From: an uncultured Anaerolineae bacterium
GTDB lineage: Bacteria; Chloroflexota; Anaerolineae; Anaerolineales; Villigracilaceae
Assembly (NCBI GenBank): GCA_903908605.1
Contig: CAIVSQ010000264.1
Coordinates: 494-64,493 of the forward strand
DNA: 64,000 nucleotides
Direction: 5' to 3'
Below, one piece after another: positions 6,610-21,502 of the stretch. The notes beneath the pieces were generated by a model that did no database searches, was not told where the DNA came from, and was given only the letters and a program-made list of their open reading frames with translations. Each line of letters begins with the position of its first letter. Position 1 is the first letter of the stretch. A program made the translations under genes and the position numbers.

Positions 6610-6790
6610 GGTCAAAGTATACCCCGATTTCAACCAGCTCGTTTGGAGGGCTTACAGCATGTGTCTTTTTTTTCATACTGCCTTCCTATTGTTTTGATGA
6701 TCTCATCTATGTATAATTTATTAGCCTTATTTTTACCCAGTTTGACGGAATAAAATATTCATCCACTTTTTGAACTCATCGGAGATTCCA

Positions 6791-8224
6791 ATGACTATCG
6801 TACAGTATTCCCAGACAGATCCTCAATGGAAGAGCAAGGTGCTTGGGTTTGACAAAACCTCTACCATTGGCGCCTTTGGGTGTTTGCTGACCAGCATGTC
6901 CATGTGTGCCTCCTATTACGGGGATTCCACCTTGAACCCGGCGGTCTTGAATGACAAGATGAAAGCCATTGGCGGTTTTCAGGCTGGCACGGCATTTATT
7001 GTGGCCTGGATGATTGGTAAAGTGGTGCCCGGCATGAGCCTGGATTATCGCGCCTGCAAGGGGGCTTCAGCTCCCATGGCTGAGATTGATGCCAACCTTG
7101 CCCAGGGCAGACCAGTCATAATTGAGGTGGACTGGTCGCCACAAGCTGGCGTGCAGACACACTACATGCTGTTGTATTCCAAATCAGGCAGTGATTACCT
7201 TGTCTATGATCCTTATCCGTATCCTACCAGCAGTGGCCAGATTAAGCTTTCGGCATCAAAATACGCTACCGTGGCGGGCACTATAGACCCGGCCAGGATA
7301 ATCACGGGGCTGTTTTTCAGCCGTGGTGCAGCGCCTGTTACGCCTGTTCCCCCACCCAACCTGGATAAGGGTGTGGTGGCCAGTTTCCCCGTTTTTGCCT
7401 CGGCGGATGAACTGGCTTTACGATCTCAGCCGGTCATTGCCGATTACACCCTGCTCAAACGTTATCCTGCCAACACGGAATTCAAAATCCTTGAGGCGGA
7501 TGCCAGTGCAGGACCCAAGGTGGGTGCCCAAAATACCTGGTTACCAGTGAAGGCCGCAGATGGAAGCCAGGGTTATGTGGCCGCCTGGCTTGTTTCTAAA
7601 ACAAAAACCGGGCAAGCGCCCGCCCCGGGAACACCACCAGCGGTAGTGCCGGTTCCAAAAGATGCTCCAGTGGTTAAAACCAGTGTGGACGCGCTTAAAT
7701 TGCGTTCCAAACCTGACAGCACTGATGCGACCATTCTGAAGCTTTACCCAATTGGCACTGAGTTGAAAGTGCTCGAATCCGCCGCGGAAGCAAAGCGAAA
7801 AGTGGGTGTCAATTTTGAATGGCTCAAAGTGTCCGATGTAACTGGCAGCCAGGGGGTTGTGGCAGCCTGGTATGTTTCAATTGTCAGCCTGGGTGTATTT
7901 GGCCCCGAGGCGCAACGTGAAACCGCCGGTCCAAGTTTTTCCCTGGATGCAGAGGTTCAGCCCGTGCTCTTGCGAACCACTGAAGATCAGGTAGCCATGC
8001 GTAGCAAACCCTTCATTTCCGCCCATACCTTGATTCAACGCTTGCCCAAGGATACCGAATTGATTGCCCTGGGAAAACCCGAAACCAATATGAAAAAGCT
8101 TGGTCGCAGCGGTAAATGGATCCGTGTGAAAGATGTAAGGGGTAACCGAGGTTATGTGGCAGCCTGGTTGCTCAAAGAGCGCCCTGAGGCTCCGCTGCCT
8201 GCGGTTGCTCCCAGCGATTGCTAG
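6791..8224 (+). CDS. Papain-fold C39-like peptidase domain followed by three bacterial SH3 (SH3b) repeats; no signal peptide
   Basis: GGAGA RBS lies 5 nt before the ATG at 6791. The N-terminal QWKSK..GAFGCLLTSMSM (Cys) ... THYMLLY (His) ... VYDPY arrangement is typical of the peptidase_C39-like family. Three repeats of the type LxLRSxP....L..h....E..VLE......G....WLxVxD..G.xGYVAAWhh follow. Confidence 0.7.
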   Translation: MTIVQYSQTDPQWKSKVLGFDKTSTIGAFGCLLTSMSMCASYYGDSTLNPAVLNDKMKAIGGFQAGTAFIVAWMIGKVVPGMSLDYRACKGASAPMAEIDANLAQGRPVIIEVDWSPQAGVQTHYMLLYSKSGSDYLVYDPYPYPTSSGQIKLSASKYATVAGTIDPARIITGLFFSRGAAPVTPVPPPNLDKGVVASFPVFASADELALRSQPVIADYTLLKRYPANTEFKILEADASAGPKVGAQNTWLPVKAADGSQGYVAAWLVSKTKTGQAPAPGTPPAVVPVPKDAPVVKTSVDALKLRSKPDSTDATILKLYPIGTELKVLESAAEAKRKVGVNFEWLKVSDVTGSQGVVAAWYVSIVSLGVFGPEAQRETAGPSFSLDAEVQPVLLRTTEDQVAMRSKPFISAHTLIQRLPKDTELIALGKPETNMKKLGRSGKWIRVKDVRGNRGYVAAWLLKERPEAPLPAVAPSDC

Positions 8225-8241: not shown

Positions 8242-8265
8242 TACCAGGCCGAATTCGGCCTGGTA
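8242..8265 (+). terminator. Perfect 24-nt palindrome or hairpin downstream of the SH3b gene
   Basis: taccaggccgaattcggcctggta is fully self-complementary. No clear T-run follows. Confidence 0.35.
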
Positions 8266-8353
8266 CTCGCAGCGGGATACACCTGTCATCATCTGCGCGA
8301 GATACGCTTCAGTGAAGCAACCCATGTACTTGTTTTAACAGATGGAGGTATCG

Positions 8354-10363
8354 ATGTCCAAACAACTGTTTACAAATGGTATTGAGGCCAGCAGTGGAGG
8401 TTCACTGGATGGTGATTTGGTCATTACCACTGATTTAATCGCCAAGATAGCGCGTGGTCAGCGTTTGTCAAAAGAGGATATTGACGATGCAAAAAAGCGT
8501 AAGTCACTGGATCAGGCTCGTGAAGCTCGTTTTGGGGTCGAGGAAGGCGTGGATGAGACCGTTCTGGCTCAAACTGGCTGGTCGGTGATTTTTCCGGCCG
8601 ATTTGCCACAAAAATCGGCGGATGCCATCAAGGAGGCCCTCAAACCGCTGCTTGACCTGCGCAAAGAGCAAGCCTCAGAAGAAAAGGAACATTATTATAA
8701 GGAGGTCATCGGGCCGGAGTTGGGGGTCAAAAAAGGGGAATCAAAAAACGATTTCCTCAAACGATTTGGCCGTGGGCCGGGGCCTGCCGTTCCGGATAAA
8801 TTTCCATATTACGCCATGATCGTCGGCTCTCCCGAAACCATTCCTTTCAACTTTCAGACCCAGCTCGACGTTCAGTATGCAGTCGGTCGCATTTATTTTG
8901 ACCAGCTTGAAGATTACTATCGTTACGCCACCAGTGTGGTGGCTGCAGAAAAGAAAAAGTTTTTCCGATCTAAAACTGCAGCCTTCTTTGGTGTGTCCAA
9001 CCCGGATGATAAAGCCACCAGCTTGAGTGCCACTGAGTTGATTGGCCCGCTTGCCCGTGAAATGCAGTCAGGTCACAAGGATTGGGGCGTGGATGTAATT
9101 GACCCTGCCAACGCCACCAAATCCAGGTTGGCCGAATACATGGGTGGCGCAAAAACGCCTTCCCTGCTTTTCAGCGCCAGCCACGGGATGAATTTCAAGA
9201 TGGATGACAAACGTCTGTTGCCCCACACCGGCTCCATCCTGACCCAGGATTGGCCCGGCCCCAAGGCACGCGTGCCAGTTACTGACAAAATGTACTTTTC
9301 AGCCGATGATATTGCCTCAGACGCGGATGTTTTTGGCATGATTGCATTCATTTTTGCCTGCTATGGCGGTGGTATTCCACGCAGCGATAATTTTTACCGC
9401 CAGGTGTATGGCGAACCCAAGGATATTGCTCCTTACGCTTTCCTGGCCCAACTTCCGCTCAAGTTATTGGCTCACCCACGTGGCGGAGCCCTGGGTGTGT
9501 TCGCGCATGTGGAGCGCGCGTGGGGTTCATCCATCAAGTGGGATGGTTCAACCAGCGATGTGGAAACGTTCAAGTCAACTGTTGCGGCTCTATTGAATGG
9601 TAAACCTGCCGGGGCAGCGACCGAATACTTCAACCAGCGTTATGCCGAAATTTCGACTGCCCTGACCGATGAGCTTGATTTCAGCACACCAGAGACGCAG
9701 GATGATGTGCGCGTAGCCGGGCTTTGGACCTCCAATAATGACGCGCGTAATTACACCTTCCTGGGTGATCCGGCGGTACGGTTGGCTGTGGATGGCAAAG
9801 CGCCTGATGCTCCCCAACGCGCCAGCCTGGGTGAGATTGTCACAAAGGTGCCTGCCGCCATTACCACCAGTGCCGGGTCTTTTCAACCGGATGTGGAAGC
9901 CAGAGGCGGTAAAGATGCTAAATCGGTAGCCAAGGGCACACCAGAAAGTTTTGGTTTCCCGGGCTTCCCAACCAAAAAAGACAGCGACCCGCTGGTTGCA
10001 ACACCCACGCAGGTTGATACCAGGGGTGGGGATGCGTTCAAGAAATTTGTGGAAAAACTGGGCGATTATCTATCGCAGGCTTTGACCGATGCTGCCAGCC
10101 TGGAAATCTCCACCTATGTGACCGGTGAAATGGATGATGTGAAATTTGAATCAGGGAAATTTACCGGTGCCAAGCTGCGTGCCCTGACGCGCATCAATAT
10201 CGATGGTGATACATTGGTGTGCGTGCCTGAAAAAGATGGCGAGGTTGATACAGCTGTTTGGAATATTCACGTCGAAATGGTGCGAGTCGCCCAGGAAAAT
10301 CGCGCGGAATTTATGAAAACGATTGTCAGCGCAGCGACCAGTATCGCCGGTTTTGGCAAATAA
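8354..10363 (+). CDS. Clan CD cysteine peptidase (gingipain C25 / caspase-like fold), cytoplasmic, with an acidic linker and a C-terminal uncharacterised module shared with the two downstream genes
   Basis: Numbering is from the track start at 8342. A hydrophobic strand plus LLFSASHG gives His281 (nt 9182-9184). A hydrophobic strand plus IAFIFACYGGG gives Cys340 (nt 9359-9361). This is the clan CD His-Gly / Ala-Cys dyad. PYYAMIVGSPETIPF...DVQYAVGRIYF resembles the gingipain N-terminal subdomain. There is no signal peptide. The start is either ATG 8342 or ATG 8354, and GGAGGT at 8344-8349 favours 8354. Confidence 0.7.
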   Translation: MSKQLFTNGIEASSGGSLDGDLVITTDLIAKIARGQRLSKEDIDDAKKRKSLDQAREARFGVEEGVDETVLAQTGWSVIFPADLPQKSADAIKEALKPLLDLRKEQASEEKEHYYKEVIGPELGVKKGESKNDFLKRFGRGPGPAVPDKFPYYAMIVGSPETIPFNFQTQLDVQYAVGRIYFDQLEDYYRYATSVVAAEKKKFFRSKTAAFFGVSNPDDKATSLSATELIGPLAREMQSGHKDWGVDVIDPANATKSRLAEYMGGAKTPSLLFSASHGMNFKMDDKRLLPHTGSILTQDWPGPKARVPVTDKMYFSADDIASDADVFGMIAFIFACYGGGIPRSDNFYRQVYGEPKDIAPYAFLAQLPLKLLAHPRGGALGVFAHVERAWGSSIKWDGSTSDVETFKSTVAALLNGKPAGAATEYFNQRYAEISTALTDELDFSTPETQDDVRVAGLWTSNNDARNYTFLGDPAVRLAVDGKAPDAPQRASLGEIVTKVPAAITTSAGSFQPDVEARGGKDAKSVAKGTPESFGFPGFPTKKDSDPLVATPTQVDTRGGDAFKKFVEKLGDYLSQALTDAASLEISTYVTGEMDDVKFESGKFTGAKLRALTRINIDGDTLVCVPEKDGEVDTAVWNIHVEMVRVAQENRAEFMKTIVSAATSIAGFGK

Positions 10364-10376
10364 CGGTCGATTGATC

Positions 10377-11180
10377 ATGGATGTTTTTGAAAGCTCTTCC
10401 ACAGACGTGTTGGGTTTGTGGACTGGGGTGCCCCAGTCCACGGGGCTTTCATTTGGCCTGGATTCCGATGAAACACAAACCGGACCTTTCGGAGGGGAAG
10501 GGGAGGTTTACCGAACCAATTTGCCCACCGATCCCGAAGCGGCACGTGACATCTTTATGACCAGTGCCAGCCATTTTAAACGGGTTGAAGATGCGCTGGA
10601 TGAAGTCCCCGGCCGCCTTGACACACTTGTGGCCAATGGTTTGACCGTGCCTGCAAAAGTGACTGCTGAACCAAGTTTTTCAACGGGTGAGCAGGTTAAA
10701 CCGATGACACCAGAAGATGAATTGGTTTCCATGCTGGCCGGAACCAGGACTGGCGATGACGCAACCGGTGAAAGTTTTGGCATTGGGGAGAGCATCGTGG
10801 AAAGCTGGGAGATTTTCCGAACCCAGTTTGAAGCTTTGATGACCTTGGTGGAGCGGGATGTGCTGCACTTTGCCTGGGTTGAGACCAATGTCGGTGGAGA
10901 AACTGTGGCGCGCACATCCATCAACTGGGGTGGCGATGTGCAAACCATCTTTGCTGAAGATGTAGAAAAAACCAGGGCCAGCTTGCACGAACGCACCCTG
11001 GGAACGGTGATACGTACCCGCCATTTGCGTTTGCGCCTGGCTGTAACAGTGGCCGGAGGCGCAGTTAAAATTGCCGCAGCGTTGGGCGGACCGGCTGGAC
11101 CCTTCCTGGCACTGCCGGCGGTTTACCAGTTTGTTACCAGTATTGTGGCGCAAGCCGCAGAACTGCAATCAATTCAATGA
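10377..11180 (+). CDS. Hypothetical protein: acidic, probably disordered N-terminal half, copy of the shared module, Gly/Ala-rich hydrophobic C-terminal hairpin
   Basis: The ORF lies 13 nt after the protease stop on the same strand. I recognise no family. The ATG at 10377 is preferred over the TTG at 10323, which overlaps the protease gene. The antisense ORFs in this interval look like artefacts. Confidence 0.6.
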   Translation: MDVFESSSTDVLGLWTGVPQSTGLSFGLDSDETQTGPFGGEGEVYRTNLPTDPEAARDIFMTSASHFKRVEDALDEVPGRLDTLVANGLTVPAKVTAEPSFSTGEQVKPMTPEDELVSMLAGTRTGDDATGESFGIGESIVESWEIFRTQFEALMTLVERDVLHFAWVETNVGGETVARTSINWGGDVQTIFAEDVEKTRASLHERTLGTVIRTRHLRLRLAVTVAGGAVKIAAALGGPAGPFLALPAVYQFVTSIVAQAAELQSIQ

Positions 11181-11204
11181 GAGAATTTTATTAAGGAGAA
11201 TATT

Positions 11205-11528
11205 ATGGCAACCAGTCCAGAACTGAAAGAAGCGATAAAAAATGCCGCCGACAAAATCGCGACTTATGTGAGCGACGTGGCAACAATGACCGTAGAAACC
11301 CGTTATGTAGAAATGGGTGGTGACTTCGAAAAAAGCAAGTTGGCCGCTCGCACGGTCATCAAGTTGGATGGCGACAGCGAAACTGTTCTACCAATGAAGA
11401 TGGGCACGGATGGTACCCTGGTGGTGGATACGATTGTGAATGAAAAGCATCAAGAAAATGTTCAGGCAGCCATCGATTACCGCGCCGAGATGCTTGAGCG
11501 CCTGCTTGGGCTGCTTTCCAGTCAATAA
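11205..11528 (+). CDS. Hypothetical 107-aa protein consisting only of the shared module
   Basis: Strong AAGGAG RBS. It aligns by eye with the protease C-terminus (KIATYVSDV..TVETRYV..LAARTVIKLDGDSETVLP..HQENV..YRAEM versus KLGDYLSQA..EISTYV..LRALTRINIDGDTLVCVP..HVEMV..NRAEF). It is followed by a strong terminator. Confidence 0.7.
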   Translation: MATSPELKEAIKNAADKIATYVSDVATMTVETRYVEMGGDFEKSKLAARTVIKLDGDSETVLPMKMGTDGTLVVDTIVNEKHQENVQAAIDYRAEMLERLLGLLSSQ

Positions 11529-11550
11529 AATCCAATTAATTGGAGCTGTA

Positions 11551-11592
11551 TGAATCAAGAGAGGCTACCGTCCGGTAGCCTCTCTTGATTCA
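11551..11592. terminator. Bidirectional rho-independent terminator between convergent genes
   Basis: tgaatcaagagaggctaccg / cggtagcctctcttgattca form 20-nt perfectly complementary arms with a T-run (tggtttt) on the + side. The 3' arm overlaps the stop codon of the minus-strand lipoprotein gene. Confidence 0.65.
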
Positions 11593-11922
11593 TGGTTTTA
11601 GTTGAAATGTGTTGCCATTTAACCGGCGATCGATGTCATCCAACATGCCTTCGATCTGATCAGCGATGGCATCAACGTCCGGTGTTGGATCGATCAAATA
11701 CTGGACCGTTCCCGGCGTAGCGCTTGGCTCAGGTGTGGGGCTTAATTCCACTCCTGGGATGGTTGGTTCTGCTGTTGCGCTTGGGATCGCCATGACCCTC
11801 ACTTTGGGTTTTGGCTTGGCCGGATCCTGGTCAAGCGGGCTGCTGGTATCATTTTTTGAGCAACTGCCGAGCAGCAGTGCCACGAATGCCAGCAAGATCC
11901 CTGTTACAAAAAGTTTTTTCAC
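11590..11922 (-). CDS. Small lipoprotein, function unknown
   Basis: A GTG start at 11922 gives MKKLFVTGILLAFVALLLGSC (signal peptide plus lipobox) followed by a Pro/Thr-rich linker. The longer track ORF would overlap the upstream gene. Confidence 0.55.
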   Translation of the reverse strand: MKKLFVTGILLAFVALLLGSCSKNDTSSPLDQDPAKPKPKVRVMAIPSATAEPTIPGVELSPTPEPSATPGTVQYLIDPTPDVDAIADQIEGMLDDIDRRLNGNTFQLKP

Positions 11923-11998
11923 AGCATTTCCTGAAAAATGGATCGCTTTGTTTCCGTGATGTGAGACCCGGCTTGAACCGGACTTATTCTGGATAAAA

Positions 11999-12547
11999 TT
12001 ATTGTTCCCCGCGCAGGCGCAGTACACGCCAGCGATCGAGGCTCTTGCGCAGAATGTTGATTGCGTTGGTGAGGCGGAAATTCGCATCCTTCACCTGGTC
12101 GCGACCAAGCAACAGGGATTCACCTGCAGCGAGGCGATCGCGCACTTCGCCATTGGCTTTCCAGCCAGAGAGCGAGAAAATGGTGATGCCGGCCTGGCTG
12201 TTTACATCACGTGCGCCAGCAACCTCGGTCAGAAAAGAGGAAAGGGCATCCTTAAGGAAGGTGACATCCTTCTTCTTTTTGGATTGGGCGGTGATCAAAT
12301 CGTCATACGTTGCACCAATCAAGCCAGCCTGAACAAAAACCGCTTCCTGGTCGACCAGCCATCCGCCTACTTTTTGGTGCATTTTCATCAAGGTTTCGTT
12401 TGGCAGGCGGCCAAGGCCTGGAATTGCTGTCAGGGGGCCGTTGCTTTCAGCATAAGCCACGGGGACCACCGTCAACAGAACTGCAATTACGATCAGTACA
12501 CTCAGCAGTTTGGCAAGAGTTTTCCCGGATGACAGGTTGTTTTTCAT
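11999..12547 (-). CDS. Secreted or membrane-anchored hypothetical protein
   Basis: The ATG at 12547 is preceded by GGAGG. It has an N-terminal signal or anchor LAKLLSVLIVIAVLLTVVPVAYA. I recognise no family. Confidence 0.55.
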   Translation of the reverse strand: MKNNLSSGKTLAKLLSVLIVIAVLLTVVPVAYAESNGPLTAIPGLGRLPNETLMKMHQKVGGWLVDQEAVFVQAGLIGATYDDLITAQSKKKKDVTFLKDALSSFLTEVAGARDVNSQAGITIFSLSGWKANGEVRDRLAAGESLLLGRDQVKDANFRLTNAINILRKSLDRWRVLRLRGEQ

Positions 12548-12670
12548 TGAAAAGTTCCTCCTAAATTGGTAAACATGGAATACCCACAAGTTCATTATTG
12601 ATGGGTATTTACGGACATCCCATTTATACCATAAGTGGCATGATTGGGATATTAATTTTGCCGCATTACA

Positions 12671-19529: not shown

Positions 19530-20708
19530 ATGTCAGAAAAAATATTAATTGTTGATGATGATCTTGATACCCTGAGGCTTGTTGGCCTAATGCTTCAGAA
19601 GCAGGGTTTTCAAATTGTAGCAGCAAGTACCGGCGCACAAGGCCTGGAATTGGCACTATCTGAGTTGCCAGATTTGATCATTTTGGATGTCATGATGCCA
19701 GGCATGGATGGTTACCAGGTTGCTCGGCGTTTGAGGTCGAATGAAAAGACACTCGATATCCCGATATTAATGTTCACCGCCAAGAGCCAATTGGATGACA
19801 AGGTGAGCGGGTTTGAAGCGGGCGCGGATGACTATCTTACCAAGCCGACTCATCCGACCGAGTTACAGGCACATGTTAAAGCGCTGCTGGCACGCTCTAC
19901 CAAGGCCAAGGTGACAACCAATCCATCAAGCAAACCGCTTGAAGATACCGCGCATACAATAGGAATTATAGCAGCCCGTGGGGGCCTTGGGGTGACAACT
20001 GTGGCTGTCAACCTGGCTGGAGCTCTCTGGCAGCGTTCTGAAAAGAATGTGATTATGGCTGAATTTCGACCAGGGCAGGCCACACTCGGTTATGACTTGG
20101 GGTTTGACAAGACAACTGCGTTGACTGAATTGTTGAATACCCCCCCGCGTGAGATTACCCGCTCCATGATCGATGAAAAACTTATCAAGCGGCCGGAAGG
20201 TATCAAGGTATTGGCAGCCTCCACCAGGCCCAAAGATACCGTTTTGATCCAAAATGTGCCGCAATTTGAGGCCATTCTTGGACGCCTGGAGTACATGGCC
20301 AGGTATGTGGTGGTTGATCTCGGATCTGGGATTAGCCCGCTTACCCAAAAACTTTTGCCATCGTTTAAAGAAATTATTGTGGTGGTTGAACCATTTGAGA
20401 ATTCCCTGCGACAATCCAAGGAATTGATCGATGACCTGGCTGAGATGGGCGTCAATAAAGAACACCTGTATGTTTTAGCCAATTACCGTCTGCGCTCGGA
20501 TACCCCTCAACTCTCCGTGACTCAAATGCAGCTGCTTCTACCGGTCCCAATCGATGGGAGCCTGACGCCGGCACCAGAGCTCTACCAACAAGCCACACGC
20601 CGTCACCTGATTGCCAGTGTCATGATCATGGACAGCCTGACCGGCCAACAGTTTGCTACGTTGGCAGGAAAAATCGAAACCCGCAGCAGCAAACCAGCCC
20701 AGGTATGA
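19530..20708 (+). CDS. Response regulator: receiver domain fused to a ParA/MinD/CpaE-like domain with a degenerate P-loop
   Basis: The REC domain is intact (DD at residues 9-10, phospho-acceptor D in LIILDVMMPGMDG, T in MFTAKS, K in YLTKP). The second domain is ParA-like, but Walker A reads ARGGLGVTT instead of KGGxGKT[T/S]. Walker B-like VVVDLGSG is present. Confidence 0.8.
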   Translation: MSEKILIVDDDLDTLRLVGLMLQKQGFQIVAASTGAQGLELALSELPDLIILDVMMPGMDGYQVARRLRSNEKTLDIPILMFTAKSQLDDKVSGFEAGADDYLTKPTHPTELQAHVKALLARSTKAKVTTNPSSKPLEDTAHTIGIIAARGGLGVTTVAVNLAGALWQRSEKNVIMAEFRPGQATLGYDLGFDKTTALTELLNTPPREITRSMIDEKLIKRPEGIKVLAASTRPKDTVLIQNVPQFEAILGRLEYMARYVVVDLGSGISPLTQKLLPSFKEIIVVVEPFENSLRQSKELIDDLAEMGVNKEHLYVLANYRLRSDTPQLSVTQMQLLLPVPIDGSLTPAPELYQQATRRHLIASVMIMDSLTGQQFATLAGKIETRSSKPAQV

Positions 20709-21502
20709 CCGCATTTTCCAGTCAGTTACTGGATGGGATTGAATTCGCCGCTGAGTTATTACGAGAGGCCCGCCATGCCGTTATTTTGACGGGGGCGGGC
20801 CTTTCTACACCTTCCGGCATCCCAGATTTCCGCTCGGAGGGAACTGGTTTGTGGGCAAATGATCAGCCGTTGGAAGTTGCCTCTTTGCTGACATTTCGTA
20901 CTCACCCAGAAGAATTTTTTAATTGGTTTCGCCCGCTGGTTGGCCAAATTTTTAACGCCAAACCAAACGCGGCTCACCTGGCCCTGGCGCAGTTGGAAGC
21001 AGGCGGATTTTTACAATCAGTTATTACCCAGAATATTGATATGCTGCACCATAAAGCTGGGTCCAACCGGGTGATGGAACTGCACGGTACATTGCGCACC
21101 CTGTCGTGTACGCAGTGTTACCGCCAGTTTGGTTATGAAAATTACCTGCCTGCCTTCGTAGAGAATGGTAAAATCCCTCATTGCCCGGTGTGTGCGGCAC
21201 TTCTCAAACCCGATGTCATCCTCTTCGGCGAACAGCTCCCTCAACTAAAATTGATGGAAGCTCAGCGAGAAGCGCGGAAATGTGATTTAATGATCGTGAT
21301 TGGTTCCTCGCTTGAGGTTCTACCGGTTGCCGGGTTGCCTATGCAATCTATTGACCGGGGTGCGCATTTAATCATTATCAATAATTCTGCCACTTACCTG
21401 AATGTCCGCGCCGATATTGTCTTACCAGAGGATGTCGCCAGAATAATCCCTGCAATTGCAGAGCGTGTACTCCATGACAAACCCAAACACAAAGTTAATT
21501 GA
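20705..21502 (+). CDS. cobB: NAD-dependent protein deacylase, Sir2 family (class U/III sirtuin with zinc ribbon)
   Basis: GAGLSTPSGIPDFRS, QNIDMLH, ELHG (catalytic His), zinc ligands CTQC...CPVC and GSSLEV. There is a 4-nt overlap with the upstream regulator gene. Confidence 0.9.
   Translation: MTAFSSQLLDGIEFAAELLREARHAVILTGAGLSTPSGIPDFRSEGTGLWANDQPLEVASLLTFRTHPEEFFNWFRPLVGQIFNAKPNAAHLALAQLEAGGFLQSVITQNIDMLHHKAGSNRVMELHGTLRTLSCTQCYRQFGYENYLPAFVENGKIPHCPVCAALLKPDVILFGEQLPQLKLMEAQREARKCDLMIVIGSSLEVLPVAGLPMQSIDRGAHLIIINNSATYLNVRADIVLPEDVARIIPAIAERVLHDKPKHKVN

Follow-up and report, generated by a model that had tools for sequence, protein, structure and literature searches.

A cluster of three adjacent genes in a 64,000-nt stretch of DNA from an uncultured Anaerolineae bacterium (contig CAIVSQ010000264.1, positions 494 to 64,493; the whole stretch is referred to here as the window) encodes a predicted cytoplasmic peptidase remotely related to the C25 (gingipain) type (g1), a fast-evolving partner protein (g2), and a small protein (g3), and one domain is very probably common to all three products. 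We favor, with slightly better than even confidence, the view that this trio is the protease-side module of a conflict cassette of filamentous bacteria that is centered on nSTAND1 and CHAT proteins and resembles nucleotide-binding leucine-rich repeat (NLR) systems, the nucleoside triphosphatase (NTPase) half of the cassette having been lost at this locus. An earlier interpretation, made from the letters of the window alone (hereafter, the sequence-only reading), had suggested that the cluster could be a self-contained, terminator-bounded operon encoding a protease-controlled, membrane-active effector.

The gene layout given in the sequence-only reading stands: three co-directional open reading frames (ORFs) on the plus strand, g1 (8354-10363, with an alternative ATG at 8342), g2 (10377-11180), and g3 (11205-11528), are separated by only 13 nt (g1-g2) and 24 nt (g2-g3). 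Position 8354 is the likely start of g1, because GGAGG lies 5 nt upstream of it and the homologs begin with MS(Q/K)EL; g1 residue numbers below nevertheless count from 8342. The Peptidase_C25-aligned region of g1 (8807-9784; Pfam match) contains the motifs H281-G (His codon, 9182-9184) and C340-YGGG (Cys codon, 9359-9361), each following a hydrophobic strand, and H281, G282, and C340 are invariant among 15 Anaerolineae and 24 cross-phylum homologs, the latter drawn from Chloroflexota, Cyanobacteria, Acidobacteriota, and one Alphaproteobacterium. The clan CD dyad in its canonical context had thus been read correctly, and so had the protease class, with all 24 cross-phylum relatives matching Peptidase_C25 (PF01364) at E ≤ 0.01 (best, 2.9e-11) and no competing family; a precomputed PF01364 match is attached to many g1 homologs. 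The window protein itself matches PF01364 with 22.0 bits (E = 1e-4; gathering cut-off, 23 bits), and no sequence relatives in the PDB were detected in two profile searches, even at E ≤ 10, apart from a spurious stretch of MtrE. In a hydropathy scan, which is not a signal-peptide predictor, the KD19 maximum of g1 was 1.47, at the catalytic strand, the N-terminus was hydrophilic, and no strongly hydrophobic segment was found, in agreement with the earlier statement that the protein has neither a signal peptide nor a transmembrane segment. Because the relatives match C25 alone, yet PDB sequences are out of reach, g1 is, as judged from sequence, a cytoplasmic clan CD peptidase, a remote member of the C25 type, in which the His/Cys dyad is preserved.

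Downstream of the peptidase region, g1 continues into a variable, probably flexible linker (9794-10021), which occupies poorly conserved, indel-rich alignment columns. Two linker features were considered as cleavage sites and rejected: an FQPD island and an E-x-[FY]-G-L-x-D motif are invariant in Anaerolineae only and not across phyla, and the count of the latter motif (7 vs 3.3 in shuffled sequences) does not rise above the shuffles.

The linker is followed by the domain that ties the three proteins together. The last ~105 residues of g1 (copy 1, residues 564-667; 10031-10342, plus strand) align with g3 both in BLASTP (34% identity, E = 2e-9) and in profile-profile comparison with hhalign (96% probability, E = 1.7e-9), with seven positions invariant across both families. 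The copy in the middle of g2 (copy 2, residues ~137-225; 10785-11051, plus strand) is more divergent: the first, shallower profile comparison with g3 was weak (12% probability), and the relationship became convincing only with deep profiles built from 80 loci (90% probability, E = 1.7e-6, 88 columns, g2 residues ~142-229), the hidden Markov model (HMM) of the shared domain also matching g2 of two loci (L056 and L083) directly. AlphaFold2 (AF2) models of g3 (pLDDT 84) and g2 (pLDDT 74, pTM 0.70) present the same element order, a long helix, a beta-meander, and another long helix. The shared domain is an alpha/beta unit of ~100 amino acids (aa) that accounts for the whole of g3, the tail of g1, and the middle of g2, and it was found in every cross-phylum g1 protein checked. 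The sequence-only reading had recognized no family for g2, g3, or the g1 tail, and none was found in Pfam, NCBIfam, or PADLOC, but the mutual homology of the three regions had been missed; its description of g3 as a 107-aa single-domain protein was accurate, g3 being a stand-alone copy (copy 3) of the domain.

Searches for fold relatives were likewise negative, with no match to the g3 model at E < 0.07 or TM > 0.37 in the PDB and BFVD, and nothing better than E = 0.77 and TM ≤ 0.21 for the g2 model in a Foldseek search of the PDB. YbaB, a low-ranking candidate for g3 (TM 0.34-0.37), has merely the loose helix-sheet-helix order in common with it and was rejected, and a weak Pfam match of g3 to Ribosomal_S30AE (E = 0.025) was dismissed. 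We therefore regard the shared domain as previously undescribed and without a detectable fold relative. When 1.84 billion representatives were searched exhaustively with its HMM, 740 clusters were recovered, the best 150 of which are nearly all g1 proteins or their fragments, or g3-type proteins. Two members have unusual architectures. In P0283 (L089, 3896-11923), a 2675-aa protein, four copies of the shared domain are placed between nSTAND1 and WD40 regions, in the order Trypsin, nSTAND1, 4x shared domain, WD40. In P0325 (L088), the C39-SH3 protein discussed below runs on in frame into the linker and shared domain of g1, with a genuine g2 encoded next, although this fusion comes from a single 2.6-kb metagenomic contig and should be treated with caution. 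A 484-aa CHAT protein adjoins P0283; integrase and helix-turn-helix genes are found on the same contig, and the locus may represent a related system in mobile form. A 265-aa ORF beside P0283 was considered as a g2 relative and is not one. In a subclade that includes Thermoflexales and some Anaerolineales (L061, L062, L065, L067, L070, L072, L079, and L084), the ORF in the g3 position is longer (124-157 aa) and scores higher with the g1-tail profile than with the g3 profile, which suggests either that the tail was duplicated independently or that these ORFs form a separate g3 subtype.

The genomic surroundings of g1 relatives link the trio to NLR-like proteins. The g1 family is large (2649 matches in a word-indexed search, present in at least 566 species-representative genomes), and its carriers belong to Chloroflexota, Cyanobacteria, and Acidobacteriota; according to the host listing, which comes without statistics, the hosts are mostly Anaerolineae, Chloroflexia, Nostoc, and Leptolyngbya, along with Acidobacteriota and one Alphaproteobacterium. 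In the first contexts viewed, the trio stood directly downstream of a ~1250-aa nSTAND1-WD40 NTPase, the nSTAND1 domain of which begins at residue ~19, and this gene in turn followed one for a CHAT-SIR2 protein. We surveyed 80 loci with custom HMMs, 70 of which had enough flanking sequence to score g2 and g3, and 46 enough to score CHAT, nSTAND1, and C39-SH3 genes. The g2 gene was present in 66 of the 70 loci and g3 in 53, so that the synteny across phyla that the sequence-only reading had proposed to check was borne out, and among the 46 loci with longer flanks a CHAT-bearing neighbor (CHAT-nSTAND1 fusions included) was encoded in 36, a canonical nSTAND1 protein in 29, and a C39-SH3 protein before the cassette in 19. 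The canonical order is (C39-SH3), CHAT-SIR2, nSTAND1-WD40, g1, g2, g3. Chloroflexota have CHAT-SIR2, nSTAND1-WD40, and then the trio; in Cyanobacteria, g1 and g2 precede a CHAT-nSTAND1-CHASE2 fusion and g3 is missing; and in some Acidobacteriota the cassette partners lie on the opposite strand. Thus, the g1-g2 pair is conserved in three phyla and is linked to nSTAND1/CHAT genes in several gene orders. The linkage recurs in varied arrangements, and P0283 is a fusion besides; both points speak for a functional tie beyond simple synteny, and we consider it likely that the trio module is functionally part of nSTAND1/CHAT systems. The tie to conflict systems proposed in the sequence-only reading is thereby strengthened, the family being linked to CHAT, SIR2, and STAND NTPase proteins, but its self-contained, terminator-bounded system is replaced by the 3' part of a larger nSTAND1-WD40/CHAT-SIR2 cassette, the NTPase half of which is missing in the window.

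Neither the trio nor the NTPase matched any system in PADLOC 2.0, and the CHAT-SIR2 neighbor gave weak, domain-level matches only (ThsA SIR2, SAVED_CHAT, and LmuA). Relatives of g1 that lack the tail, annotated as 'C25 family cysteine peptidase', adjoin giant CHAT-domain and ATP-binding proteins on plasmids, namely, pNSMS101 of Nostoc sp. MS1 (L086, 6654-17518) and a plasmid of Sinorhizobium terangae (L087, 6488-17263), and in both cases are preceded by an unannotated ORF of ~440 aa; this looks like a second, different C25-centered arrangement.

No STAND NTPase is encoded anywhere in the window, where the largest ORF (926 aa) specifies an amylase-family protein. Comparison with relatives indicates how the cassette came to be incomplete. 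Among Anaerolineales, the location of the cassette, beside nadD, is fixed (12 loci); one locus that has the right flank of the window in common with it possesses the NTPase pair (L018), two others with common flanks lack it (L008 and L085), and one retains a 69-aa CHAT-SIR2 remnant (L033). In the g1 tree, the NTPase pair was lost several times independently while the trio was retained. The absence of the CHAT-SIR2 and NTPase genes from the window accordingly looks like a deletion. That absence might suggest that the trio is a decaying, non-functional remnant, an explanation that we regard as essentially refuted: the three ORFs are intact, the catalytic residues are kept, and between the window and L085, both of them NTPase-less, the ratio of nonsynonymous to synonymous substitution rates (dN/dS) is 0.030 for g1, 0.155 for g2, and 0.028 for g3 at dS of 0.47-0.65. 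Given dN/dS of 0.03-0.16 between two loci without the NTPase, the orphaned trio is, on this sequence-based measure, under strong purifying selection and functional; here it either works autonomously or uses an NTPase encoded elsewhere.

Several observations weigh to some extent against the reading of the trio as the protease side of an NLR-like cassette. The window has no NTPase, and the repeated loss of the NTPase pair with the trio kept means that the function of the trio is possibly NTPase-independent; the canonical nSTAND1-WD40 protein carries no copy of the shared domain; the C25 match of the window protein falls just under the Pfam cut-off, with PDB relatives undetectable; and a fixed position, vertical inheritance, very low dN/dS, and housekeeping neighbors are atypical of fast-turnover defense genes. 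The neighbors in the window comprise a Liv-type ATP-binding cassette transporter, nadD, a GAF histidine kinase, PrsW, a response regulator, and a CobB-type sirtuin, and the defense-island location contemplated in the sequence-only reading was not found there. These features would suit a housekeeping or regulatory proteolytic complex, engaged, for example, in protein maturation or turnover during filamentous growth, to which STAND/CHAT adjacency would be secondary, and the dN/dS of 0.03 for g1 and g3, the lack of a PADLOC match, and the fact that the module was not found on viral contigs all fit it as well. We nonetheless deem such a complex quite improbable, in view of the nSTAND1/CHAT linkage, which spans three phyla in varied orders and includes fusions, so that synteny alone is insufficient to account for it, and of the shared domain fused inside an nSTAND1 protein (P0283).

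The candidate substrate of the protease is the partner protein g2. Its N-terminal half is acidic (24 D+E vs 8 K+R in 136 aa), its last 42 aa are 38% Gly+Ala, and its AF2 model contains three low-confidence loops (residues 22-39, 92-106, and 127-137) in which a psi-(S/H)-F-(G/D/S) motif recurs at fixed positions (104 occurrences observed vs 9.9 expected). It evolves ~4-5 times faster than g1 and g3. The C-terminus forms a helical hairpin (residues ~216-266; 11022-11174, plus strand; AF2 helices 198-236 and 241-266) that is marginally hydrophobic: KD19 ranges from 1.3 to 2.2 across homologs, which is not above a buried strand of g1, and a conserved Lys lies inside it. The sequence-only reading had described both the acidic N-terminal half and the Gly/Ala-rich C-terminal hairpin correctly, but the hydrophobicity that it ascribed to the hairpin is only marginal.

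These properties bear on the possibility that the trio is a self-contained pore-forming system, in which g1 cleaves g2, the hairpin inserts into the membrane and the cell dies, g3 serves as a decoy or inhibitor, and no NTPase is needed. The fact that in several lineages purifying selection keeps the trio intact with no NTPase beside it, the combination of disordered loops and a Gly/Ala-rich helical hairpin in g2, and the mimicry of the g1 tail by g3 are all points in its favor. A gasdermin-like or other known pore-former identity of g2 was, however, rejected on the Foldseek scores given above (best E = 0.77, TM ≤ 0.21) and the lack of a Pfam family, the hairpin (KD19 ~1.5, with its conserved Lys) is no more hydrophobic than the buried g1 strand, and the module is physically linked to a STAND NTPase and CHAT-SIR2 in the majority of genomes whose flanks are long enough. 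We consider this scenario rather unlikely. With no pore-former fold and a hairpin of marginal hydrophobicity, the membrane-active effector of the sequence-only reading stays a conjecture. Of its two steps, cleavage of g2 by g1 is a serious possibility, if somewhat short of an even chance, and action of the cleaved g2 on the membrane is unlikely.

How might the trio operate as the protease-side module of an NLR-like cassette? The tandem copies in P0283 suggest that the shared domain is an oligomerizing unit, and the three copies encoded by the trio would accordingly associate, with the protease tethered through its flexible linker to a complex of g2 and g3. The fastest-evolving component, g2, with its motif-bearing disordered loops, could be the substrate of the protease or its regulated output, insertion of the hairpin into the membrane being one option for the cleaved form. 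As a mimic of the g1 tail, g3 might compete with the interaction of that tail or complete it; the small regulatory or decoy subunit imagined in the sequence-only reading has become somewhat more plausible, g3 being a paralog of the tail. Where an NTPase is present, its oligomerization would probably switch the protease on. In the fullest form of this model, which we advance only tentatively, the shared domain would be a hetero-oligomerization module that assembles the three proteins into a complex centered on the cytoplasmic gingipain-type protease and that constitutes a new input/output device for NLR-like NTPases, capable of autonomous action as well, g2 being a proteolytically released effector or a signal read by WD40 domains.

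The direction of information flow could also be the reverse. CHAT-SIR2 and nSTAND1-WD40 already resemble a complete sensor-effector pair, and the trio might instead be the sensing or guarded arm, its complex, or g2 fragments bearing the psi-SFG motif, being monitored by the WD40 propellers, with CHAT-SIR2 as the executioner. The rapid evolution of g2 and the excess of its loop motifs would be in line with such a role, as would the location of the shared domains between the NTPase and the WD40 sensor in P0283. However, the trio is kept where the NTPase and CHAT-SIR2 have been lost, whereas a pure sensor deprived of its effector should decay, and we judge this arrangement improbable.

The flanks of the trio contain further elements. 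Upstream, a gene at 6770-8224 (plus strand) encodes a protein with a Peptidase_C39_2-like domain and three SH3_3 domains (Pfam assignments), without an obvious signal peptide, which in the window directly abuts g1. This C39-SH3 gene is a conserved 5' neighbor of the cassette in many Anaerolineae and may be a further component or merely a syntenic neighbor; the adjacency could reflect vertical inheritance, because the synteny of nadD and the C39-SH3 gene extends over 12 loci. Immediately past its stop codon lies a perfect 24-nt palindrome (8242-8265; 10-bp stem and 4-nt loop; -19.4 kcal/mol, z = -6.1) without a T-tract, of which the outer 6 bp alone are kept in the closest relative (L085); it is probably the terminator of the C39-SH3 gene or an operon boundary. 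Downstream of g3, an intrinsic terminator (11550-11593, plus strand; -37 kcal/mol, z = -8.6) consists of a 20-bp stem with a T-rich tail and is located also at the end of a convergent minus-strand gene; in L085, the structure is kept with substitutions on both arms. Both bracketing structures had been identified accurately in the sequence-only reading.

Within g2, ~40 nt past the start codon, there is a 13-bp hairpin (10415-10444, plus strand; -27.3 kcal/mol, z = -4.4) that is identical in L085 except for one loop base, despite dS of ~0.5. The residues that it encodes (WTGVPQST) are variable in remoter homologs, and the hairpin may therefore be a lineage-specific translational or RNA-stability element. 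Two small convergent genes (11590-12087 and 11999-12595, both on the minus strand) are kept with the right flank of the trio in L008 and L085; a lipobox-like LLGSC signal occurs in one product, and the N-terminus of the other resembles a signal peptide. The ORFs overlap as listed, and their true starts are probably internal. A classical Sir2-family protein (PF02146) encoded at 20705-21502 (plus strand), 9 kb downstream of the trio, appears from its family and surroundings to be a CobB-type deacetylase of housekeeping function that has no relation to the SIR2_2 domain of CHAT-SIR2.

Comparative genomics is the main source of what is known about the STAND/NLR-type immune and cell-death systems of multicellular bacteria, and to our knowledge the coupling of STAND sensors to separately encoded effectors is largely unresolved. 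The shared domain, which recurs in three neighboring proteins and is occasionally built into the NTPase itself, offers a concrete candidate for such a coupling device. The loci that have lost the NTPase half and kept the trio under strong selection amount to natural experiments that make the autonomy of the module testable, and the trio proteins, being small and soluble-looking, are amenable to co-expression, cleavage mapping, and structure determination. The family also adds widespread cytoplasmic C25-type peptidases to a group otherwise known from secreted virulence proteases.

No published account of the trio, or of a C25/gingipain-type peptidase combined with STAND, CHAT, or NLR proteins, was found in the searchable literature. 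The closest precedents are the STAND (nSTAND1) conflict systems of multicellular bacteria, which deploy caspase-fold or trypsin effectors (Kaur et al. 2020, PMC7159879; Kaur et al. 2021, PMC8195603, where Pfam nSTAND1 is named); a C25/gingipain-type peptidase is mentioned in neither article. Similar to these systems, relatives of the trio are linked directly to nSTAND1 NTPases bearing WD40 or CHASE2 sensors and to CHAT/SIR2 effector domains, and a short non-enzymatic domain is common to neighboring proteins. Going by the host listing, their distribution seems to favor filamentous Chloroflexota and Cyanobacteria. By contrast, the shared domain of the trio is alpha/beta rather than all-helical and Death-like and does not correspond to Pfam EAD, Death-like, or Trypco; it is, moreover, absent from the canonical NTPase, and the window has none.

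Other systems resemble the trio in part. In the EACC1-caspase system, the gene directly 5' of that for a caspase/CHAT protein, which may carry a STAND NTPase, specifies a small protein whose hydrophobic helix is rich in Gly (Kaur et al. 2020, PMC7159879), and the cyanobacterial order of g2 followed by CHAT-nSTAND1-CHASE2 is reminiscent of this arrangement. However, g2 is a multi-element protein of ~270 aa with a hairpin instead of a single transmembrane helix and is always preceded by the C25-like g1; given this difference in architecture and the lack of any Pfam family at E ≤ 1 (the presence of an EACC1 model in the Pfam copy being unverified), an EACC1 identity of g2 was rejected. In Bell/BASS pairs, a matching short motif occurs at the C-terminus of the effector and the N-terminus of the NLR (bioRxiv 10.1101/2020.01.06.895854), whereas the g2 motifs are internal and no matching motif was seen by inspection at the nSTAND1 N-terminus, so an amyloid-signaling pair of this kind was rejected as well. 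The bacterial gasdermin-protease operons likewise place a caspase-fold protease beside a ~265-aa partner, often with NLR-like repeat proteins, and by analogy a cleavage-activated logic is plausible for the trio, but g2 has no gasdermin fold or family and carries a domain that is also present on the protease. With the gingipains and other C25 peptidases, g1 has in common PF01364 as the sole family matched by 24 of 24 members and the invariant His...Cys dyad after hydrophobic strands, but it differs from gingipains in lacking a signal peptide and secretion or adhesin domains, in its predicted cytoplasmic location, and in its novel C-terminal domain. Overall, the logic of an NLR-like NTPase paired with a caspase-fold protease is familiar; what is new is the protease family, the shared domain, and the module of three proteins.

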